A stretch of 64,000 nucleotides of DNA from Candidatus Woesearchaeota archaeon (lineage in GTDB: Archaea; Nanobdellota; Nanobdellia; SCGC-AAA011-G17; JACPIM01), in the NCBI GenBank assembly GCA_964513145.1, contig CAZELK010000005.1, forward strand, positions 1 through 64,000, in the 5' to 3' direction. Positions 3,999 through 14,401 of this stretch are shown here, piece after piece. The notes under the pieces were generated by a model. That model did no database searches. It was not told where the DNA came from and saw only the letters and a program-made list of their open reading frames with translations. Within the stretch, counting starts at the first letter, position 1. Every line of letters begins with the position of its first letter. The translations under genes were made by a program, and so were the position numbers.

Positions 3999-4072
3999 AC
4001 CCCTTAATTTGTACAGCTACTATTTAATATTTTTTATATTCCGAAGATACTATTTTTGATACAAAATTGAAA

Positions 4073-4306
4073 TTAAACTTCTTGTCTTAATTTATCATAA
4101 TCTTCTCTGCTAATTTTAGCCTGCTTTAAGATTTCATTTAGCAACCCAGTTCCAAGTTCTTCATTACCATGAACTGGAATTACAGTTCTTCTGCCATCCA
4201 AGTGCTTAAATCTTATATGACTACCTTTTCCATAGCTTTTCTCAAACCCTAACCTCTCTAGAATCTTACACATTTTTTTGCCAGAAACCAGTACTAATTT
4301 TGTCAT
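4073..4306 (-). CDS. hicA: HicA toxin
   Basis: LGF...GKGSHIRFKHLDGRRTVIPVHGNEEL. Confidence 0.92.
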   Translation of the reverse strand: MTKLVLVSGKKMCKILERLGFEKSYGKGSHIRFKHLDGRRTVIPVHGNEELGTGLLNEILKQAKISREDYDKLRQEV

Positions 4307-4527
4307 ACTTCAATCTGAACTTGCTGTACGCCAATAAATTTCATTGGCTCTATTTCCTCTTTATCTGCTTCCAAACAAACTTCAATAGCTTCTTTAATTC
4401 TGTCAAGAACCTGGGCGATTGTTTTACCCTGGGTATGGCAACCAGCTATGTCTGGAACAGTTGCAACATACCATCCTTCTTCATCTTGCTCTATTAAGAC
4501 TGTAAAGTTTAACATTTTATTTTCCAT
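4303..4527 (-). CDS. hicB: HicB antitoxin (short form)
   Basis: IEQDEEGWYVATVPDIAGCHTQGKT; ATGA overlap with hicA. Confidence 0.92.
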   Translation of the reverse strand: MENKMLNFTVLIEQDEEGWYVATVPDIAGCHTQGKTIAQVLDRIKEAIEVCLEADKEEIEPMKFIGVQQVQIEV

Positions 4528-4579
4528 AAAAGTATTAAAGAACAGGCTTATATAAAATTATCGGCAGTTTTCACTCGAG

Positions 4580-6175
4580 TTATCTTGTTTTTAAATTGTT
4601 TAATATATTAGTTAATTGCTCTGTGCTTTTTTTCAAATTAGGATCCTCTTTTTTTATAATTGGTTTATCTATTGGCTTTTCGATAATTGGTTTTAATAAT
4701 GTGTCAAAATTTAATTTATTATCCTGAGCATAATGAATATTTAATTTTAAAGCTGTTTCTGCTTTCATTAATTCCAATCCAATGTCCAATGCATGAGGAA
4801 CTAAAGAAATTATGTTTTCTTTAATCAGAATATTTCTCATCTCTTCTGCTGATTTTGCCTTGTAAATTCCCAAAGTTTCTTTTGTTGGTGATGTGTGCTC
4901 GAGAATAATTTCATTATCTTCTAAACTTATAATCAAATTACCCCTGGGATCAAATTCAGACAATAAACTTGCATATCTTGGCAAATACATTTCAACTATT
5001 TTATTGCATCTTTCCCAAGAATCATCATAAATATGTGCTGACTGCGACAAAATAACTAAATTGCCTAATTTTAAATCATCATTTATTCCTTTTGCTTTTA
5101 ACCCTTCTTCAACCTGCTTTCTTATTTCTTCCTGCAATACTCTTAAAGCCAAGGCATTTTCTGGATAACCTTCGAACATGTCATGACTTCTAAAAATAGC
5201 AGTCATATACAATTTATTATTATTTACCCTTAACCAGATATGATTTAAGCATGGACTTCCACCCAATGTCAAGTCTTTTACAGTATCCCATAAACTTATT
5301 ACAACTGCTCTTGAAACTGATTCACGAATTAATTTTTCAACAGCGCCTTTAACCTGGTCAATGCCAAACCAGCTTCGCATTCTGCTTCCATAAGTGTATT
5401 CATTTTTTGATGTTCCACCTGGAAGATCCTTAGTCATTCTCGGAATATATTCATTTACATGCTGCTTGTCTGACGGGAAAAAATCCGGAACATTAAGATT
5501 ATATGGATCTTCATCTGAAATAATCGACATTAAATTCACAATTTCTTTTTGCATATCATCATAATGAGTGCCTGATTCTTTGCCAAATTTTAAAATTGTG
5601 TCTAAAACTTTTATCCATGCTTCTGCAACTGTTTTTCCCCTTACTACATAACCAATATATTCGCCAACATATTTTTTTACAAACTCTTCTTTTTTAATAA
5701 AAATCATTTTTTCCCTTGTTTTTTGTATTTGTGGCAATGTTGAGAAATCAAATATGCTTAAATCCGGAACTTTTACTAAAGAAACTGTTTCCCTTATCAA
5801 GTTTAAAGCTTCTTCTGTTATATCTAAGTCTATGTAACCTTCATACTGGCTATTTACACGCCAACATGGTTTTTCAGTTGTGTCTGTTTTTCCCTTGAAA
5901 AAACCTTTTTCGAAAAAGTCTTTTAAAACTATGCCTGATTTTGAAAAATCTACCCCACTCAATAACAAAATAGAAATTTTTGGATTTGCCAATAAATTTC
6001 TTATTAATAAATCCAAACCTCTTTCTGCACTATACAAAGGACCAATTACACAATATTTACTAGAATCAATTTTTTGGGCCAATTCTTTTGGCTTGCTCCA
6101 CAAAGTTACTATGCCCACATTGCTATCTGGATTGCCATAAATTAGTCTAGACCCCTTATATAAAGCTTCAAACAA
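4580..6175 (-). CDS. thyA: Thymidylate synthase fused to N-terminal MtrA-like and C-terminal DUF4346-like domains
   Basis: YTYGSRMR, SPCL catalytic Cys, FRSHD, SQSAHIY; TTG start 10 nt after GAGGTG; extra domains recognised by motif. Confidence 0.85.
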   Translation of the reverse strand: MFEALYKGSRLIYGNPDSNVGIVTLWSKPKELAQKIDSSKYCVIGPLYSAERGLDLLIRNLLANPKISILLLSGVDFSKSGIVLKDFFEKGFFKGKTDTTEKPCWRVNSQYEGYIDLDITEEALNLIRETVSLVKVPDLSIFDFSTLPQIQKTREKMIFIKKEEFVKKYVGEYIGYVVRGKTVAEAWIKVLDTILKFGKESGTHYDDMQKEIVNLMSIISDEDPYNLNVPDFFPSDKQHVNEYIPRMTKDLPGGTSKNEYTYGSRMRSWFGIDQVKGAVEKLIRESVSRAVVISLWDTVKDLTLGGSPCLNHIWLRVNNNKLYMTAIFRSHDMFEGYPENALALRVLQEEIRKQVEEGLKAKGINDDLKLGNLVILSQSAHIYDDSWERCNKIVEMYLPRYASLLSEFDPRGNLIISLEDNEIILEHTSPTKETLGIYKAKSAEEMRNILIKENIISLVPHALDIGLELMKAETALKLNIHYAQDNKLNFDTLLKPIIEKPIDKPIIKKEDPNLKKSTEQLTNILNNLKTR

Positions 6176-6244
6176 ATTAATTTTTCACCTCAAAACAATT
6201 TTGATGTTTTTATATATAAATATTTGTCTCGTGAATAACAATAA

Positions 6245-6874
6245 TTAATATTCAATGCCTCTTCTAGCTGAAACACCTTTTTCATAATAATGCTTGACTA
6301 ATTTCATTTCAGTAACCAAATCAGCCATTTCTATTATTTTTGGGTCAGCGTCCCGACCTGTAATAATTAATTCTGTTGTTTTGTTTTTATTTTTTATTAA
6401 ATCCATTAATTCAGTTAACTGCAAAAATCCAAGTTTTACTGCCACATTTACTTCATCTAAAACAACCATATCATATTCTTGTGAAGAAGTAATTTCTTTT
6501 GCCTTATCAAATGCCAATCTTACAAAACGTCCTTGCTCTTCATCATTTAAAAAACAATATCTGCAAGGGCCGCATTCTATATCTTCTCTTACATAATCAA
6601 AAAAATGAGCCTTGTCATCAAAACCAATCAATTTCAACTGCTTTTTTTCAACAACACAACCACGACCATACTGAATAAACTCATTATTTGGAAGAAAATT
6701 TTTAGCACTAATGAATTCACCAGTATAAGCACCACCTTTCATGAACTGGATTATAAAAACTTTAAGACCCTGGCCAATTGCCCTGACAGCCAGGCCAATT
6801 GCTGCAGAAGTTTTTCCTTTTCCATTACCTGTGTATACTTGAACTAAGCCCAGCTTGCTTTGCGTTATTTTTAT
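6245..6874 (-). CDS. cobO: Cob(I)alamin adenosyltransferase (CobO/BtuR type)
   Basis: Frame extends upstream of track ATG to LGLVQVYTGNGKGKTSAAIGLAVRA; IQFMKG, VVLDEV, LIITGR, ADLVTEM, RRGIEY; start codon uncertain (ATA 6874 or 6868). Confidence 0.9.
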   Translation of the reverse strand: MKITQSKLGLVQVYTGNGKGKTSAAIGLAVRAIGQGLKVFIIQFMKGGAYTGEFISAKNFLPNNEFIQYGRGCVVEKKQLKLIGFDDKAHFFDYVREDIECGPCRYCFLNDEEQGRFVRLAFDKAKEITSSQEYDMVVLDEVNVAVKLGFLQLTELMDLIKNKNKTTELIITGRDADPKIIEMADLVTEMKLVKHYYEKGVSARRGIEY

Positions 6875-6886
6875 CCACCACCTTTT

Positions 6887-8914
6887 TTAATTTGGTTCTT
6901 TTAAATTTATAACCTGCTCCACTCTTGAACCATTTCTGTAAATTGTAATCCCTTTACAACCAGCTTCATGCGCTTTAAAATATACTTTTTCAACATCCTG
7001 CAATGTAGCTGCAGATGGGAAATTTACTGTTTTTGAAATTGCATTATCAATGTAGTTCTGGAAAATAGCCTGCATTTTTACATGCCACTCTGGACTAATT
7101 TGATGAGACATAACAAATGATTTTTTTATTTTTTCAGGTATTTCTTCTATTCCTTCTAATGACCCTTGCTCAACTATTTTCTTAATTAATGATGGCGAGT
7201 AAAATCCTCTTTCTTTTGCAATTTTCTCAAAATGTTTATTTACAATAATTATCTGTGTTCCATCAAGAATATTTCTCATGTAACAAATTGCAAAATTAGG
7301 CTCTATGCTATTACTTGTTTCTGCCAACATGCTTATACTCCCTGTTGGTGCAATTGCTGTAACTGTTGCATTTCTCATTGATATTTTATTATTGAAAATA
7401 CTTTTTTTGTAATTTGCAAAATTTCCTTTTTCTACGCCTAAATTAGATGATTCTTCTCTTGCTGTTTTTTGCACGAATTTTATTATTTCTTCTGCAATTT
7501 CCAATGCTTTTTCGCTATTATATGGGATCTGCAATGCAAATAAAAGATCTGCAAAGCCCATTACACCAAGACCTACTTTTCTGTTTGCTTTTGTCATTTC
7601 ATTTACTTTCTCAATTTTATAATTAGTTGCGTCAATTGCATTATCAAGAAATCTGACAGCTAATTTTACAACTGTTTTTAATCTTTCAAAATCTATTTTA
7701 TCTTCTTTTACAAACTTTTCTAAATTTACTGAACCTAAAAAACAACCTTCATAAGGATATAATGGAATTTCTGCACAACTGCTTGTTGTTTCCAATTCCC
7801 CAAATTCCGGTGTTGGATTTTTTTTATTAATATTGTCCAAGAATAACAAGCCAGGCTCACCGTTTTTCCAGGCTGCTGAGATTATCATGTCAAATATTTT
7901 TCTTGCATTATATTTATTTACGACTTTTTTTACATGCGGGTCATAAATATCATAATCTTCTCTTTTTTTTACTGCTTCCAAGAATTTGTCTGTAATACCT
8001 ACAGAAATATTAAAATTTTTTAAATTTGATATGTTGTCTTTTGCACCAATAAACTCTATTATATTTGGGTGATCGCATCTCAGGATAGCCATGTTGGCAC
8101 CTTTTCTATTACCCCTGCATCTTATTAAGTCACTTGCATTGTTGAAAATATGCATGAAGGCGATTGGACCAACTGCCTTTCCAGTAATTTCTGAAGTTCT
8201 GCTTCCGCTAGGACGGATTTTTGAAAAGTTAAAACCAGTGCCTGCTGAAGTTTTCTGCAATATAACTGCATGGAGCAAGGAAGTAAAAATACTTTCAAGA
8301 CTATCTTCTATTGGTATTGCAAATGAACTTGCCAAAGCAGTTGAGTTTGTGCCTGCGTTTGCCAATATTCTTCCTGAGGGCAGAAATTCTAAATTTGAAA
8401 TTATGTCATAAAATCTTTTTTCTAAATCTTTGACATATTGCTCGTCTTTTTTATATAATTTTTCAACTAAGGCTATACATTTTGCGACTCTCAAAAACAT
8501 TTCATTCGGAGTTTCTATTACATTACCATGCTTATCTTTTTGCAAATATTTGGCTTCTGCTATTTTTAATGCTGAAATACTTAAATCAGAATCATCAATT
8601 TTTCCAATTAAAGACTGCTTAGCTTCCCTAATCATTGTTCGTTTATATCTGTATAAAATATAGGATTTAGCTGTTTCAGCATGGCCTTCTCTTATCAAAA
8701 TTTTTTCAATTATATCCTGTATATCTTCAACAGTCGGGGTTTCTTTTTTTGCATAATTTAATTCCAATTCTTTTTCAACATTTTCTGCCAAATTTTCTGC
8801 CAATTTATTATCTAATTTATTTACAGAATCCATTGCTTTAGAGATAGCATTAACAATCTTCTCCTTACTAAAAAGAACTATTCTACCATCCCGTTTTCTT
8901 ACTTTTGTTATCAT
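6887..8914 (-). CDS. nrdJ: Class II (AdoCbl) ribonucleotide reductase-like protein with ATP-cone, catalytically degenerate
   Basis: ATP-cone VRKRDG...VEDIQD; TAIAPTGSIS, GITIYRNGSR; but LASSF replaces LxxCF and TSSCAE replaces TNPCGE. Confidence 0.85.
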   Translation of the reverse strand: MITKVRKRDGRIVLFSKEKIVNAISKAMDSVNKLDNKLAENLAENVEKELELNYAKKETPTVEDIQDIIEKILIREGHAETAKSYILYRYKRTMIREAKQSLIGKIDDSDLSISALKIAEAKYLQKDKHGNVIETPNEMFLRVAKCIALVEKLYKKDEQYVKDLEKRFYDIISNLEFLPSGRILANAGTNSTALASSFAIPIEDSLESIFTSLLHAVILQKTSAGTGFNFSKIRPSGSRTSEITGKAVGPIAFMHIFNNASDLIRCRGNRKGANMAILRCDHPNIIEFIGAKDNISNLKNFNISVGITDKFLEAVKKREDYDIYDPHVKKVVNKYNARKIFDMIISAAWKNGEPGLLFLDNINKKNPTPEFGELETTSSCAEIPLYPYEGCFLGSVNLEKFVKEDKIDFERLKTVVKLAVRFLDNAIDATNYKIEKVNEMTKANRKVGLGVMGFADLLFALQIPYNSEKALEIAEEIIKFVQKTAREESSNLGVEKGNFANYKKSIFNNKISMRNATVTAIAPTGSISMLAETSNSIEPNFAICYMRNILDGTQIIIVNKHFEKIAKERGFYSPSLIKKIVEQGSLEGIEEIPEKIKKSFVMSHQISPEWHVKMQAIFQNYIDNAISKTVNFPSAATLQDVEKVYFKAHEAGCKGITIYRNGSRVEQVINLKEPN

Positions 8915-9044
8915 AAAACACCAAAATTAAGGTTTTTATTATTGTGCTGTTTATATTATTTTCTTTATGATTTAATTTCATAGGTACTTTATTTAATATT
9001 AAACCACAATATTTAAATATTACTTTGTTTTACTTAGTAATACT

Positions 9045-9299
9045 ATGGAAACTATAACTATTAAAATTGAAGAACAATTTGCTAAAAATCTTGAAAAAAC
9101 TATAAAAAAACATAATTACAGTACAAAAACTGAATTTATAAGAGAAGCTATACGAGACAAAATTCATGATTTAGAAAAAGAAGAAGCTCTTATGAGAGCC
9201 AGAAAATTATTCGGAACTTCTCGATTACAAACTACGGATGAACAACGCCATAGGGCTGGGGAAGAAGCCTTTGAGGAATTAGAAAAAGAACTACAATAA
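9045..9299 (+). CDS. CopG/RHH family antitoxin-like regulator
   Basis: METITIKIEE...YSTKTEFIREAIRDKI. Confidence 0.8.
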   Translation: METITIKIEEQFAKNLEKTIKKHNYSTKTEFIREAIRDKIHDLEKEEALMRARKLFGTSRLQTTDEQRHRAGEEAFEELEKELQ

Positions 9300-9701
9300 A
9301 TCTTTTGGTTTTTTAATTTCAACAATATCAGTTAATTTCTCAAAATGATTGTCTGTTGCTATCATAACAGCTTCGTTATCTCTTGCCAAAATTGCGTGCA
9401 AAACATCTTTTTTTGGAATGTTTCTCTTAAATGCTATTTGTTTAGCCTCAATTAATTGATTTTTATTGGAATGAACTTTTTTTATATTATTAGCTTTAAA
9501 AATTCTGAAGATTGATTGTATTTCTTCAGAAGCATAACTTAATTTTTTTAATTCCATTATATGCAAATCAGATAAAATTAAGGCGGCATCTTCTTCAATT
9601 AATTTTAATATTATCTTTTTAATTAGTTCTTCACCCATATTTCTTTTTTCATAAACATCCAACAATATAGATGTATCTAAATTATAAATCCCCATAAACA
9701 T
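9291..9701 (-). CDS. PIN-domain protein
   Basis: LDTSILLD, DVLHAILARD, IATDNHFEKL; likely start MGIY at 9695. Confidence 0.85.
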   Translation of the reverse strand: MFMGIYNLDTSILLDVYEKRNMGEELIKKIILKLIEEDAALILSDLHIMELKKLSYASEEIQSIFRIFKANNIKKVHSNKNQLIEAKQIAFKRNIPKKDVLHAILARDNEAVMIATDNHFEKLTDIVEIKKPKDLL

Positions 9702-9738
9702 TAGTTAAGTAAGTTAAATTTTGTTTGAAATACTCACA

Positions 9739-12384
9739 TTAATCAGCACAAGTTTTTATTATTTTACCATCTTCAATTTTTATTTCACAAGTGTTTTTTT
9801 CTGTAGAATTTATTCCGAGCATTGACAGTTTATCTGTGTTTAAACTGATTTCTTCAATTGGTATGTCATGGTTTTCTTTTAAAGAATGGTAGGCTGTGCT
9901 TAACAAGCCGTTTTCCATTGTGAAAACTTCATCCCCCTTTAAAATTAAATTTTCATTATTTGTCAAGACTTTAAAGGTTTTTTTCTTTATTTCCTGGAAT
10001 TCTGTTTGTTCCTGTGCCACACTTAAAATCGGATATCTAGAACCGTCCCTGTAAATTGTTATGCCTTTAAGCCCTTTTTTCCAAGCATCAAAATAAATAC
10101 TTGAAACCATTTCAGGCTTAATGCTTTCAGGCAGATTTACAGTAGAAGAAATACTGTGATCAATAAACTTTTGACACGCACTTTGGACTTCGATTCTTTT
10201 TTCTGCACTAATAAAATGAGCTGTTCTAAAGAAAAATGATGGCAACACTTTTCTTAATTCATCCAAATTAGTTATATCCTTTGCCTTTTCAGTTAATTGC
10301 TTTAAATCAATAAAAGACTGGACTGTTGGATGAAATACATTGTAAAATTTCGAACTTTCTTCCTTGTTTAATGTTTCTGACCTTCTTTGATAATACAAAG
10401 CAAAAATCGGTTCAACACCAGAACTAACACCAACATAATAATTATTTTTATTTTTAAAACCCAAGACTACATTTGAGATTGTACCTGTTGGTGCAATTGT
10501 CAAAATTGCTATATTTCTTAGTCCTCTTTTCTTTATACTATCTTTTACTTCCTGGCTTAATGCTTCCTGAAAAAACGGACCTTTTGAATAAGCTTCGTAA
10601 TTAAATATTGGTGAAGGTTCTTTTTCTTCAGCCAATAATGAAGAAGCCATGTATGCTGTATTTGCTATAAATTCCATAACTTCAGATATTAAAGACAAAC
10701 CTTCTTCAGAATCATACCCTATTCCCAACTGATTTAACATATCTGCAATACCCATTACACCCAAACCCAAACGTCTTGTTTCTGAAGTAGCCAACCTCTG
10801 TTTTTCCAATGGGTTAAGGAACATATTCCATGTAATTGTATTGTCCAGGAACCTAGTAACTGTTATTACTGCTTCTTTTAATGAATCCCAGTTTATTTTT
10901 GCATGTTCAGTGTAACCATTGTCAACAAACCTTGATAAATTCATGGCACTTAAATTACATGCGCCGCCATCTTCAAGAGAAATTTCTCCGCACGGATTAG
11001 TAGTAACAATTTGCCTTCCAACGTAATTTGAGGGCGAATATTTAACCATTCTTGACCAGAATATTAAACCTGGTTCTGCAGTTTTATAATTGCTGGCTAC
11101 AAATTTGTCCCAAATCTCCCTTGATTTAACTAATTTTTTTATTTCTTTTGTCTGATCAGAATTAAAATATAATAAAAAATCACCAGAGTAATGTACTGCA
11201 AGATCATGCTCTGGAAGAGATAAAATAAAATCCCCAAAAATATTTCTTAATTTCTCATCTTTTAACATTTCTTCTGTCAATTCCTTTTTGTAAGTTATTA
11301 AAAAATTATTTAGTTCTGGTACAGAATCAAATTTTTCTATTAACTCATAATTGGAAAGTTCTTTTGATGGTATGCCATAAGAATAATGAATATATCCCTG
11401 CCTTGTTTCTTCAGGCTCATCATTTTTTAATCTTTTATAAACAAGAATTTTGTCAGCCCCATAAAGAGTTTGTTCTTCAACAGAATTCATAAATTCATCA
11501 GTTACTTTCATACTTACATTAGCAAACCTTACCTGGGTATTTTCACGAATTTGACGCTCTATTTCATTTAACTGTGATTCATCAAATAAATTAGACCATT
11601 TACATTGATCCACAATTTGTCTTGTTACCCAATTAGGGGTTCTTTTTACATTAATAAAATTGAATACATCTGGGTGTTTTACATCTAAAGTTAACATCAA
11701 GGCTCCCCTTCTGCCACTCTGGCCAATCAATCCAGTAGTCAATGAATATATCTCCATAAATGAAACAGCGCCAGTTGAATGATTGGCTGCGTTATGAACT
11801 AATGAAAAAGCAGGTCTTAATGAGGACATATCAACGCCAATTCCACCACCATAAGAATAAGTTCTTGCACATTCATAAGCTGTTTTGTAAATACTTTCAA
11901 TATTATCTTCTTCAATTATTGAAACAAAACAATTGCCCAATGTTTTTAATCTGTATAAATCCCCAGCTCCAGCAATGACTCTTCCGCCAGGCAAGAAATG
12001 ACCTTCGAATAAATTATTATAAAATTTAACTGCACATTCTTCTTGTTTCTCTTTTGTCAATTCTACTGCAGCTAAAAAAGCAGCCAGTCTTGCAAAAGTC
12101 TCTTCTGGCTTTGTTTCAATTAATTCATCTTTTAAATTTTTTAAAAAATATTTGCTTGAATAAATATCTTTAGCTAATTTGTTATTGCCCAAGTATTTAT
12201 TTTCCAGATGCATAGGCAATTTACCATTATTTTGAAGGTCTCTTAAGAAAAATAAAAGTGCTTTATAATTTTTGATATATTCTGGTGGGGATAATTTAGC
12301 AACCTTGCTTTTATGTGAGAACATTAATTCTAATTCGTGATTAAAATTATTTTCAACCTCTGTTTGAGATATAGTTTTATCCAA
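9739..12384 (-). CDS. nrdJ: Class II (AdoCbl) ribonucleotide reductase, intact, no ATP-cone
   Basis: LGNCF, GRRGALM, TNPCGE, GACNL, TIAPTGTIS, GITIYRDGSR, C-terminal Cys pair; TTG start after GAGGTG. Confidence 0.93.
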   Translation of the reverse strand: MDKTISQTEVENNFNHELELMFSHKSKVAKLSPPEYIKNYKALLFFLRDLQNNGKLPMHLENKYLGNNKLAKDIYSSKYFLKNLKDELIETKPEETFARLAAFLAAVELTKEKQEECAVKFYNNLFEGHFLPGGRVIAGAGDLYRLKTLGNCFVSIIEEDNIESIYKTAYECARTYSYGGGIGVDMSSLRPAFSLVHNAANHSTGAVSFMEIYSLTTGLIGQSGRRGALMLTLDVKHPDVFNFINVKRTPNWVTRQIVDQCKWSNLFDESQLNEIERQIRENTQVRFANVSMKVTDEFMNSVEEQTLYGADKILVYKRLKNDEPEETRQGYIHYSYGIPSKELSNYELIEKFDSVPELNNFLITYKKELTEEMLKDEKLRNIFGDFILSLPEHDLAVHYSGDFLLYFNSDQTKEIKKLVKSREIWDKFVASNYKTAEPGLIFWSRMVKYSPSNYVGRQIVTTNPCGEISLEDGGACNLSAMNLSRFVDNGYTEHAKINWDSLKEAVITVTRFLDNTITWNMFLNPLEKQRLATSETRRLGLGVMGIADMLNQLGIGYDSEEGLSLISEVMEFIANTAYMASSLLAEEKEPSPIFNYEAYSKGPFFQEALSQEVKDSIKKRGLRNIAILTIAPTGTISNVVLGFKNKNNYYVGVSSGVEPIFALYYQRRSETLNKEESSKFYNVFHPTVQSFIDLKQLTEKAKDITNLDELRKVLPSFFFRTAHFISAEKRIEVQSACQKFIDHSISSTVNLPESIKPEMVSSIYFDAWKKGLKGITIYRDGSRYPILSVAQEQTEFQEIKKKTFKVLTNNENLILKGDEVFTMENGLLSTAYHSLKENHDIPIEEISLNTDKLSMLGINSTEKNTCEIKIEDGKIIKTCAD

Positions 12385-12585
12385 ATTTTCACCTCTTTTT
12401 ACTTAAGGACTTTTTTATATAAATATTTTGTCTTTTAATTGAATATATTTACAAAACTTAAACATTATTTAAATATTCCTTAGTCACTTTTCGGTGGGCT
12501 GTTAAATTTTTACAAAATGCACTATTAAGGCTTAAGTACATTAAATAAAAATTGAATTTTAAGCGAAAAAACTTCATTAAAAAGG

Positions 12586-12615
12586 TTTAAAAAGTATTCT
12601 TCAAAATATATTTTA
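12586..12615 (+). repeat. 30-bp direct repeat, copy 1
   Basis: TTTAAAAAGTATTCTTCAAAATATATTTTA, identical at 13429-13458. Confidence 0.9.
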
Positions 12616-12640
12616 TTAAATATATAAATAAAGCTATTAA

Positions 12641-13111
12641 TTATTTAAAAAATCTTTTTAACCAAATCATAACCTGTATTATAAAGTTATTTTTTTTAAT
12701 TTTGAAATATTTATTTATAAAATATCCCGGATTAACTATCTGTATATTTTTATAACTCTTTAGAGTTAATAAATGTTTATCCCATGAAACTATAAAATCT
12801 GCATTTACTTCTGAAGCGCATTCTATAAATTTATTATCATCAGGATCATCTTTGATTACATTTATTTTTTCTTTTGGTTCTATCACTTCAGCATAAGATA
12901 AAATTAAAGCTAACTGCCTCTCAATTTTCTCTTTGGGTTGTTCAAATTCTTCTATTAATTTTTCTTCCAATTCCTTTAAAATATCTAACGAAACAAAAAC
13001 TTTAATTTTATTTTCTAAAGCAAGTTCAATAATTTTATGCGAACTACCAGTGAAACTAATTATAGAAGAAATAAAGACATTTACATCCAAAACTACATTA
13101 ATTTTTAACAC
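12641..13111 (-). CDS. PIN-domain putative toxin
   Basis: VVLDVNVFIS, DDPDDNKFIECA, IVSWDKHLL. Confidence 0.9.
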   Translation of the reverse strand: MLKINVVLDVNVFISSIISFTGSSHKIIELALENKIKVFVSLDILKELEEKLIEEFEQPKEKIERQLALILSYAEVIEPKEKINVIKDDPDDNKFIECASEVNADFIVSWDKHLLTLKSYKNIQIVNPGYFINKYFKIKKNNFIIQVMIWLKRFFK

Positions 13112-13394
13112 CTCTTGATTTATGGATTAATTTATCAATATTATGTTCGCTTACTCCTTTCTCTTTACTCCATCTACTTCCCCAAGCAGTTAATTCTTTA
13201 AACTCTTCTTTAGGATCACTTATTTTTACTTTTTTTATAATCAAAAAATCTTTCATTCTACTTAAAACAACTGTAGATCCAATTTTAAGGTCTAATTCCT
13301 CTCTAAAATGTGCTGGTATTACAACCTGCCCTTTTGTTGAAATTTTTGTTATTTCCATAAATTCACACTCCAGTAAGAATGTAATACTTTCCAA
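13098..13394 (-). CDS. AbrB/MazE/SpoVT antitoxin
   Basis: TKISTKGQVVIPAHFREELDL; real start may be MEITK. Confidence 0.88.
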   Translation of the reverse strand: MESITFLLECEFMEITKISTKGQVVIPAHFREELDLKIGSTVVLSRMKDFLIIKKVKISDPKEEFKELTAWGSRWSKEKGVSEHNIDKLIHKSRGVKN

Positions 13395-13428
13395 CTTAAA
13401 TAACTTTTGCTCGATATAAATATAAAGA

Positions 13429-13458
13429 TTTAAAAAGTATTCTTCAAAATATATTTTA
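13429..13458 (+). repeat. 30-bp direct repeat, copy 2 (promoter region of ThiF gene)
   Basis: Identical to 12586-12615; ends 1 nt before ATG 13460; contains TTTAAAAA TATA-like box. Confidence 0.9.
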
Positions 13459-13459
13459 G

Positions 13460-14401
13460 ATGAGATATATAAGACAAGAAAGATTCGTTGGTAAGGATAA
13501 ACAGAACCAAATAAGAAATAAAACTGTCGCTATAGTTGGTTTGGGTGCTTTGGGGAGCGTAGCCAGTGAATTATTAACCCGGGCAGGGGTAAAAGAACTT
13601 ATTTTGATTGACAGGGATTTTGTTGAATTGAGCAATTTACAAAGGCAGGCTATATTTTGCGAAGAAGATATTGATAAAAGCAAGGCTTTAGTTTTAAAAG
13701 AAAAATTAAAAAAAATAAATAATGAAATTAAAATAAATGCTTATTTTGATAATTTAGACAATGATAATATAAATTTAATTAAAAGCGATTTAATTTTGGA
13801 TTGTACTGACAATTTAGAAACAAGATTTTTAATAAACGAATTTTGCATTAAAAATAGGATTCCTTTTATTTACAGTTCTGCTATAGGCGATTCTGGATAT
13901 GTATTTAATATAGTTCCTGGAGAAGCTTGCTTTAACTGTATATTTAAAGAAACAAATGGGCTAGAAAGCTGTGAAACATTTGGGGTATTAAATACCATTA
14001 CTCATTTAATTGCTTCTATACAAGTTAACGAGGCTTTAAAAATTTTAACTAATTCTGACTATGAAAAATACCTAATTTATGTAAGTTTAGAAAATAATGA
14101 GCTTGCAAAAATAAAAGTTAATAAAAATAATGATTGCGTGGTTTGTGGAAATAAAATTTTTGATTATTTGGAAGGCAAGAAAAACAAAAAAATAATAAAA
14201 TTTTGCGGAAGCTCCATTTATTTAATTAACGGCAACTTTAATTTGGAAAATATGAAGAAAAAATTAGAAAAAGAAAATATTTTTTTAAGTGATAAAGCAA
14301 TTCATTTTAATAATATAATAATTTTTGATAACAAAGTACTGATTAAAGCTAAAGATGAAAAAGAAGCTAAAAGTCTGTATTCAAAATATATTGGAAATTG
14401 A
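13460..14401 (+). CDS. ThiF/MoeB/E1-like activating enzyme
   Basis: VGLGALGS, DRDFVELSNLQRQ, DCTDN, two CxxC zinc pairs. Confidence 0.92.
   Translation: MRYIRQERFVGKDKQNQIRNKTVAIVGLGALGSVASELLTRAGVKELILIDRDFVELSNLQRQAIFCEEDIDKSKALVLKEKLKKINNEIKINAYFDNLDNDNINLIKSDLILDCTDNLETRFLINEFCIKNRIPFIYSSAIGDSGYVFNIVPGEACFNCIFKETNGLESCETFGVLNTITHLIASIQVNEALKILTNSDYEKYLIYVSLENNELAKIKVNKNNDCVVCGNKIFDYLEGKKNKKIIKFCGSSIYLINGNFNLENMKKKLEKENIFLSDKAIHFNNIIIFDNKVLIKAKDEKEAKSLYSKYIGN

Follow-up and report, generated by a model that had tools for sequence, protein, structure and literature searches.

The window analysed here is a stretch of 64 kb (64,000 nucleotides) from the genome of a Candidatus Woesearchaeota archaeon (G000), and it contains two genes encoding homologues of NrdJ, the class II ribonucleotide reductase (RNR). 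All positions given below are those of this stretch. The first open reading frame (ORF), on the minus strand at 6887..8914, starts with ATG and encodes a protein of 675 aa (P0001, also called here the degenerate or dead copy), which Pfam, NCBIfam and an AlphaFold2 (AF2) model characterise as a degenerate, tail-less NrdJ paralog with an ATP-cone. The second (9739..12384, minus strand) starts with TTG, preceded by GAGGTGA, and encodes a canonical cone-less NrdJ of 881 aa (P0002). The stop of P0002 and the start of P0001 are separated by 821 nt because a gene for a PIN-domain protein of 136 aa (Pfam; 9291..9701, minus strand) sits between them. Immediately 3' of P0001 lies a gene (6245..6886, minus strand) for an ATP:corrinoid adenosyltransferase of the cobO/cobA type (PF02572, E 2e-57), followed by a gene for a ThyA-DUF4346 fusion. 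P0001 and P0002 are encoded by the only two PF02867 genes of the genome, which measures 978 kb and is 98.8% complete, and a search of the whole genome found no NrdD, no NrdR and no ATP-cone other than that on P0001.

P0001 is a full-length homologue of RNR. Its matches to PF00317 (E 1e-20) and PF02867 (E 1e-124, model positions 1-523 of 523) are strong, and Pfam gives the domains as ATP-cone (PF03477, E 6e-24, model positions 2-87 of 88), Ribonuc_red_lgN and Ribonuc_red_lgC. With TIGR02504, the NCBIfam equivalog model for NrdJ (cut-off 400 bits), P0001 scores 629 bits and P0002 502 bits. The ATP-cone occupies residues 4-93 (8636..8905, minus strand), scores 84.8 bits against a gathering cut-off of 25.8 and has the conserved nucleotide-binding residues; among the cone positions that are conserved in canonical relatives, 19 are kept and 6 are conservatively changed. 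No DNA-binding or other output domain was found in P0001 by Pfam. The AF2 model, built from an alignment of 55 sequences, has a mean pLDDT of 90.5 and a pTM of 0.89, and its best matches in the PDB are complexes of Thermotoga maritima NrdJ (TM-score 0.84 normalised to the target); as modelled, the fold of P0001 is intact.

The residues of the active site were assigned by a HMMER alignment of P0001 with T. maritima NrdJ (1xje, E 9e-116) and by inspection of the codons, all of them on the minus strand. Ser197 (TCA, 8324..8326) stands at the position of the first redox or proton-donor Cys, C134 in T. maritima and C225 in Escherichia coli. In the finger loop the motif S378-S-C380-A-E382 (7769..7783) replaces N-P-C-G-E: the Asn (T. 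maritima N320, E. coli N437) has become Ser378 (AGC, 7783-7781), while the thiyl-radical Cys is kept as Cys380 (TGT, 7777-7775; T. maritima C322) and the Glu as Glu382 (GAA, 7771-7769; T. maritima E324, E. coli E441). N-P-C-x-E is the norm in class II, being present in 3175 of 3347 sequences (PMC9669993). The second redox Cys is also kept, as Cys391 (TGT, 7742..7744; T. maritima C333). In loop 2 (R265-C-R-G-N-R-K-G-A273, 8096..8122) the Gln that reads the substrate (Q203 in T. maritima) has given way to Cys. Also kept are, at 8213..8305, the anchors of the specificity site on either side of helix A, D204 (D141 in T. maritima) and R234 (R171), and further the distal phosphate loop APTGS. The apical phosphate loop is kept as P-S-G-R (8369..8380) and is of the NTP type according to the published motifs, P-N-S-P for NDP and P-[ASG]-G-R for NTP reductases (PMC8365446). 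The protein ends in ...GITIYRNGSRVEQVINLKEPN and stops 12 residues past the betaJ motif GITIYRNGS, with no Cys tail. Of what a working reductase has, P0001 retains the thiyl Cys and the Glu and lacks the Asn, a complete bottom-face Cys pair, the C-terminal tail and the loop-2 Gln.

P0002 keeps C152, N463, C465, E467, C476 and the loop-2 Gln222, and its apical loop is PGGR. Pfam detects only Ribonuc_red_lgN and Ribonuc_red_lgC in it and no ATP-cone. Its C-terminal redox tail (9742..9789, minus strand) runs from Cys866 to Cys879 with the motif C-x-I-x-I-E-D-G-x-I-I-K-T-C, which is conserved in partners elsewhere and recurs in those of distant dead copies. Among solved structures T. maritima NrdJ is again the nearest (E 1e-74). 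Of the core consensus positions P0002, with all catalytic residues present, keeps 112/203, versus 159/203 in the dead copy. Between its two Pfam barrel stretches there are about 160 unmatched residues (residues ~250-410), an extra barrel sequence which its orthologues have likewise. A sequence-only reading of this locus, made before the alignments, had described a 675-aa copy with Ser codons TCA at 8326-8324 and AGC at 7783-7781, which the codons and the 1xje alignment reproduce exactly. It had also described that copy as an uninterrupted, tail-less ORF keeping the cone, the thiyl Cys, the Glu and the partner Cys, and the 881-aa copy as having all catalytic residues and tail cysteines and no cone; alignment and Pfam agree with it on both proteins.

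Close homologues of P0001 were retrieved by a search of 5.8 billion protein clusters, which gave ten clusters at 90% identity (P0004-P0013) that are 74-89% identical to P0001. All ten have Ser at 197, Ser or Thr at 378, Cys380, Glu382 and no tail, and because this pattern is common to all of them it is not the product of chance or of an assembly error. In six of the ten, position 391 is Ala, so that together with Ser197 no bottom-face Cys is left. The wider family was assembled by searching 1.8 billion representatives exhaustively with HMMER and by screening 401 sampled genomes from the phylum, after which the loci were classified; a cone-bearing NrdJ was called degenerate when at least one of five catalytic residues was replaced. 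Six unpublished genomes (G242, G243, G321, G332, G359 and G395) are included in the tallies over the 401 genomes, both for NrdJ and for NrdR. Together these searches yielded 42 cone-bearing sequences of the degenerate kind. At least 27 of the 401 genomes contribute to them, a minimum figure since only part of the matches were inspected. Nearly all of them are tail-less.

Among these 42 sequences position 197 is Ser in 25, Cys in 10, Ile and Val in two each, and Thr, Pro and Ala in one each. Position 378 is Ser in 25, Asp in 12, Asn in three and Thr in two, the Asn thus being lost in 39/42. The thiyl Cys at 380 is invariant (42/42). Position 382 is Glu in 32, Asp in nine and Ser in one (Asp or Ser in 10/42), and position 391 is Cys in 15, Ala in nine, Gly in eight, Val in five, Ser and Ile in two each and Thr in one. 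Read in order, the five positions give patterns such as SSCEC, SSCEA, STCEC, CSCEC, CDCEC, CDCDS, SDCET, SDCDG and IDCDS, and also TDCSV, SSCEG, VSCEV, ISCEV and PSCEA. No new motif is shared by the 42 sequences, the sole newly fixed residue being the trivial V626I.

The reference for conservation was a set of 230 columns, each conserved to at least 90% among 117 canonical relatives with cone and tail. In the degenerate family 135 of these columns are kept, 82 are mixed and 13 are lost. The kept positions comprise the ATP-cone (K7, R8, D9, G10, K19 ... K83, Y88 and R89 are retained throughout the family), D204, R234, RxGLGxMG, the distal phosphate loop and the betaJ motif (C653, K654, G655, T657, Y659, R660). 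The lost or variable ones comprise loop 2 and the ribose-facing shell (196-200, 378-381 and 391-392). At the loop-2 position where a Gln reads substrate and effector, 266 in P0001, Gln is present in 97% of canonical sequences, Cys in P0001 and various residues across the degenerate lineages. That the active-site residues vary between lineages speaks for relaxed constraint on catalysis and not for a new active site. The pattern of conservation indicates that constraint has been retained on the binding of nucleotide effectors and on the fold, and relaxed on catalysis.

The gene encoding P0001 is clearly under purifying selection over its whole length. Pairwise ratios of nonsynonymous to synonymous substitution (dN/dS, NG86) among five orthologues are 0.05-0.16 for P0001 and 0.08-0.13 for the partner gene, values which are approximate because dS is 1.0-2.0 and near saturation. 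Every segment of P0001, cone and barrel alike, gives 0.08-0.15. The sequence-only reading had left it to comparison whether the substitutions were private to this assembly and whether selection on the gene was relaxed: the substitutions recur in the ten nearest clusters and across the 42 sequences, and dN/dS is as low as that of the catalytic paralog. The possibility that P0001 is a decaying, functionless duplicate is hardly credible and is effectively refuted by these selection data: the catalytic residues are lost and two genomes of the same family (G316, G336) are without the gene, but every relative has an intact ORF, dN/dS is close to 0.1 along the entire gene, and the clade is deep and diverse, with 135/230 consensus positions kept and a confident AF2 model.

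Two members of the degenerate family carry an intein. In P0012 (983 aa) and in a copy from the same genus as the window's genome (G097; L069:3178-6198, minus strand) about 300 aa with an HNH endonuclease are inserted between R279 and C280, in the context …ANMAIVR | C…VHN | CDHP. The intein is thus maintained in a non-catalytic host protein. At the position of Val in canonical NrdJ, dead copies free of the intein, P0001 included, carry Cys280, and this Cys may be a trace left by the intein. A degenerate copy of another genome (G148; L074:2476-4695, minus strand) has the pattern SDCDA and is an exception to the loss of the tail, its C-terminus keeping four Cys in a ribbon (…SECGASLQLSIGKGICQVCGTELVQ). 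Upstream of this copy the genome has a tailed NrdJ without a cone, and it also has a third NrdJ, which is canonical, with cone, tail and cobO.

A canonical NrdJ with a tail, in most cases without a cone, is present in all of the 26 carrier genomes that were checked, and in none of them (0/26) does the dead copy occur alone. In 13 of these a tailed canonical NrdJ lies immediately upstream on the same strand (G000, G142, G097, G036, G099, G193, G131, G234, G259, G148, G205, G263 and G175). This linked partner is cone-less except in G234 and G259, the cone status being unassigned at the incomplete loci of G205 and G263. In 12 loci the stop of the partner and the start of the dead copy are separated by -10 to 164 nt. 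The canonical NrdJ of the remaining 13 checked carriers is found elsewhere in the genome, and the two genes are unlinked in G092, G080, G060, G381, G223, G005, G380, G063 and G256. Loss of catalytic residues, purifying selection and an active paralog in 26/26 carriers are the marks of a pseudoenzyme partner, and all three are found here.

Other arrangements of several NrdJ modules were seen in the searches. P0123 (1600 aa), P0124 (1351 aa) and P0014 (1155 aa, partial) are tandem fusions of two complete cone-less NrdJ modules, both CNCEC, with a single zinc-finger tail at the C-terminus; in the second module loop 2 is altered and the apical loop, CGGA, is unusual. These proteins resemble covalently joined pseudo-dimers with one tail for two active sites. 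Two further loci (L066, G072:C1:138000-148000; L067, G059:C60:1-9000) have three tandem NrdJ genes followed by cobO, in the order cone plus CNCEC without tail, cone-less CNCEC without tail, and cone plus CNCEC. The third ends in a short CxxC in G072 and is without a tail Cys in G059, so that a redox tail is present in at most one of the three.

Stages that resemble the route to the degenerate form are found in family f28. There the cone-bearing downstream gene is tail-less yet CNCEC and comes immediately after a cone-less NrdJ whose tail is a zinc finger (L079, L084, L086, L088, L089, L092, L099, L100 and L102). Single-residue decays are nested in the tail-less clade (SNCEC in L101, CNCEI in L098), and repeated decay within tail-less lineages is clear. 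In the IQ-TREE phylogeny a clade of NTP-type sequences (support 95) holds canonical enzymes with cone and tail (P0016, P0151), the clade of tailed partners, cone-less except L011, and a degenerate clade of 21 rows (support 98); both the degenerate and the partner clade branch from ancestors with cone and tail. This topology matches what would be expected of a duplication followed by complementary loss. Other degenerate groups are placed among NDP-type sequences in the maximum-likelihood (ML) tree. These several positions could reflect independent origins of the degenerate form, but an approximately unbiased (AU) test does not reject a single clade of 29 degenerate rows (p 0.37); the nested decays of f28 are the one clear case of repeated loss.

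Two readings of the pair had been offered from the sequence alone, a heteromeric class II RNR and a repurposed adenosylcobalamin (AdoCbl) radical enzyme. The comparative evidence favours the former, and the latter is disfavoured because the 42 degenerate sequences share no new active-site constellation. P0001 may well be a non-catalytic regulatory or structural subunit, that is a pseudoenzyme, of a heteromeric class II RNR formed with P0002. This is favoured by the complementary loss, the cone being kept and the tail and active site lost in P0001 versus the cone being lost and the tail and active site kept in P0002, and by the conserved adjacency of the genes, the purifying selection, the varying active site and the position of the sole ATP-cone on the dead copy. 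P0001 would have lost reductase activity, to judge from the known roles of the residues equivalent to C225, N437 and C462 and of the C-terminal tail. The Cys equivalent to C225 protonates the leaving 2'-OH and forms a disulfide with the second Cys, the Glu acts as the base, and the C-terminal Cys pair re-reduces the active site (PMC4390871).

In such an enzyme P0001 and P0002 would associate through the helix A / helix B interface common to dimeric class I and class II RNRs. P0001 would still fold and dimerise, and with loop 1 together with D204 and R234 it would hold a deoxyribonucleoside triphosphate (dNTP) effector. The intact loop 2 of P0002 would read this site on P0001 and so set the specificity of the sole live active site. 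The cone of P0001 would bind ATP or dATP and so confer ATP/dATP control on a cone-less catalytic subunit. As both the anchors and the only cone are on P0001, ATP/dATP sensing and part of the control of dNTP specificity would be supplied in trans. In the structures from T. maritima and E. coli loop 2 reaches the specificity site from the other chain. The specificity sites are located in the helix A/B dimer interface, and the effector's ribose and phosphate groups are held by one chain only, D232 of E. coli contacting the 3'-OH of the effector (PMC4728125). Within loop 2 of T. maritima roles are described for K202 and Q203, the latter reading substrate and effector (PMC3267527).

Several observations weigh against this heteromer, beside the near-saturated dS mentioned above. 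Reciprocal decay of the specificity-site anchors of the partners, which would be expected of an obligate asymmetric heterodimer, was not seen: Asp and Arg are kept, and P0002 could therefore work as a homodimer. The P0002-type partners stand on a very long branch (1.34) and are a very divergent lineage. Among the 150 top hits of the exhaustive search no protein joins a catalytic to a dead module, and the only double-module proteins found (P0123, P0124 and P0014) are catalytically intact in both halves. In yeast class Ia RNR the C-terminal tail reduces the active site of the neighbouring monomer in trans, and if this is also valid here a simple 1:1 heterodimer would not work. The invariant thiyl Cys (42/42) is unexplained by a purely regulatory role. 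NrdR and a dead copy occur together in at least nine genomes (G036, G099, G193, G131, G092, G080, G234, G259 and G148), and in the family of the window's genome G316 and G336 have NrdR and a cone-less NrdJ, with no dead copy found; the dead copy is not indispensable, since these two manage without it. Finally, the ATP-cones of class II have been assigned a 'cryptic' function, with classical activity regulation considered unlikely (PMC9669993).

P0001 could also be a free-standing nucleotide sensor, combining the ATP-cone with a dNTP pocket and acting off the dimer interface of P0002, for instance by forming nucleotide-dependent oligomers that sequester P0002 or its tail, or by acting on another target in the dNTP metabolism of its gene cluster, such as the ThyA fusion, the dCTP deaminase or the 5'-nucleotidase. 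This we regard as unlikely. The conservation of cone and specificity-site anchors would suit it, as would the unlinked genes in several genomes, the location of the dead gene in a conserved dNTP-metabolism cluster and the fact that P0002 keeps all requirements for homodimerisation. However, the complementary split of cone and tail and the tight or overlapping gene junctions better suit subunits of one enzyme, P0001 has no DNA-binding or output domain, and the constraint on the whole barrel exceeds the needs of a sensor.

A role in radical chemistry is the next alternative. P0001 could bind AdoCbl and form a thiyl radical, either for non-reductive chemistry, such as a redox-neutral dehydration or isomerisation of nucleotides, or for handling and loading of the cofactor together with the co-transcribed CobO; in these general terms we think it quite improbable. 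It would explain why the thiyl Cys is invariant while its neighbours drift, and it agrees with the conserved apical (PSGR) and distal (APTGS) phosphate loops, with the cobO gene immediately 3' of the dead copy and with a barrel constrained as strongly as the cone. The betaJ motif, which makes up the adenosyl pocket along with the finger-loop Cys (PMC9531940), is also kept. Nevertheless, the residues on the ribose side (197, 378, 382 and 391) differ by lineage with no catalytic constellation fixed, the base-reading loop 2 is unconstrained, and the linkage to cobO is ancestral, since the canonical NrdJ genes with cone and tail of the phylum share it. That P0001 is more than regulatory and represents a new AdoCbl protein with its radical on the invariant Cys380, acting as the cofactor-activating or loading subunit of the catalytic NrdJ or as a non-reductive nucleotide enzyme, is about as improbable.

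It is very improbable that P0001 is a genuine reductase with an unorthodox reductant or proton donor, by analogy with the formate-dependent class III enzymes. What remains of the active site is the thiyl Cys with the Glu and, in G000, a single bottom-face Cys; the phosphate loops are intact and the TIGR02504 score is above the cut-off. But the Cys kept in G000 is the equivalent of C462 and not the C225-equivalent proton donor that class III keeps, and most relatives have Ala, Gly, Val, Ser, Thr or Ile at position 391. Moreover, the losses at the Asn and Glu positions, the missing tail and the unconstrained loop 2 stand against it, and no carrier relies on the dead copy alone, all 26 having a canonical NrdJ.

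Compared with the dimeric class II enzyme of T. maritima (PDB 1XJE, 3O0O), P0001 shares the fold, the domain order, the thiyl Cys, the Glu, the phosphate loops, the anchors equivalent to D141 and R171 and the betaJ motif. It differs in being without the equivalents of C134 and N320, the loop-2 Gln and the C-terminal redox tail, its close relatives being also without that of C333, and in having an ATP-cone that is apparently functional, judging by its conserved residues. A dead paralog as partner is known from yeast, where the catalytically dead beta paralog of the pair Rnr2-Rnr4 is required and the heterodimer has been demonstrated experimentally. As there, an RNR paralog that has lost catalytic or cofactor residues is here kept by selection and always accompanies an active paralog; in yeast the subunit is the radical-generating beta of class I and the complex is demonstrated, whereas here a class II alpha subunit and a proposed complex are concerned.

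The NrdR repressor, a zinc ribbon with an ATP-cone, likewise has an ATP/dATP-sensing cone dedicated to the control of RNR, but it binds DNA and P0001 has no DNA-binding domain. In some class I RNRs the ATP-cone is on the radical-generating NrdB and NrdA is cone-less (PMC5794259). Activity is then sensed on a non-catalytic polypeptide and the catalytic subunit lacks the cone, as proposed here, although in those enzymes the cone is fused to an active NrdB and here to a dead copy of the catalytic subunit. The split class II RNR of Pseudomonas aeruginosa, NrdJa/NrdJb, is also made of two polypeptides from adjacent genes (PMC4520616); it is one enzyme cut into N- and C-terminal parts, unlike the two full-length paralogs of this locus.

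Textbooks describe class II RNRs as single-polypeptide enzymes that act as homodimers or monomers. To our knowledge no pseudoenzyme alpha subunit has been known before in a cellular RNR, and P0001, if the heteromer is real, would be the first. Full-text searches of the literature found no description of a catalytically dead or heteromeric NrdJ. The occurrence of several NrdJ genes per genome has been treated as a puzzle (PMC8365446), and a widespread, selected pairing of a cone-less catalytic NrdJ with a cone-bearing one from which the tail, and often the active site, has been lost would be a testable answer both to it and to the cryptic class II cones. The pair would then represent a heteromeric class II RNR with catalytic and regulatory alpha paralogs that arose by duplication and complementary loss. 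It would also show how dNTP pools can be controlled in very small archaeal genomes, in a genus that is apparently without NrdR.

The dead NrdJ gene belongs to a conserved dNTP-metabolism cluster that includes the ThyA fusion, a dCTP deaminase and a 5'-nucleotidase. Near relatives (L005, L009 and L010) keep the gene order, with ThiF first, then the cone-less NrdJ, a variable insert, the dead NrdJ and cobO. In L005 and L009 the spacer between the two nrdJ genes is occupied by other genes, and in G097, from the genus of the window's genome, it measures only 80 nt; with contents that differ in this way it is an insertion hotspot. The PIN gene (9291-9701) stands alone in it, with no obvious adjoining antitoxin ORF. 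No free-standing mini-ORF for a Cys-rich or zinc-finger tail was found within window positions 4000-14000.

The cobO gene also follows canonical NrdJ genes with cone and tail in the phylum (L018-L023, L025-L027, L031-L034 and L037-L043). Two of these control loci, L026 and L033, are from unpublished genomes (G242 and G395), and the conclusion is independent of both. A downstream cobO as a special sign of a cofactor chaperone was accordingly rejected. At window positions 6820-6895 (minus strand) the cobO frame runs on in frame from the nrdJ stop (TAA, 6889-6887). Past the Shine-Dalgarno-like tract AGGTGGTGG there is no ATG, GTG or TTG ahead of the P-loop, and the start codon is therefore ambiguous in G000; the annotated starts of cobO orthologues lie 14-83 nt past the nrdJ stop.

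NrdR is present in 301 of the 401 genomes and was not found in G000, G097 and G142. In the family of the window's genome, genera g1 and g2 have a dead NrdJ and g3 has NrdR directly upstream of the cone-less NrdJ. Mutual exclusion of the dead copy and NrdR was considered on this basis and rejected, since it is true only within this family (g1 and g2 versus g3) and the two co-occur elsewhere; because they are found together in many genomes, they are not simple substitutes for each other. In the sister genus a canonical NrdR (L046:518-973, plus strand, G336:C5; G316:C42:2085-2519) lies directly upstream of a cone-less NrdJ that bears an intein. In another family of the phylum (L142:366-2843, minus strand, G154:C36) a complete NrdR, with zinc ribbon and ATP-cone, is fused in frame to a domain resembling class III NrdD, which matches PF13597 over model positions 1-516 of 562, the C-terminal part being unmatched. 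Similar open frames of 778-854 aa are present in G090, G334, G143, G017, G139, G296 and G382.

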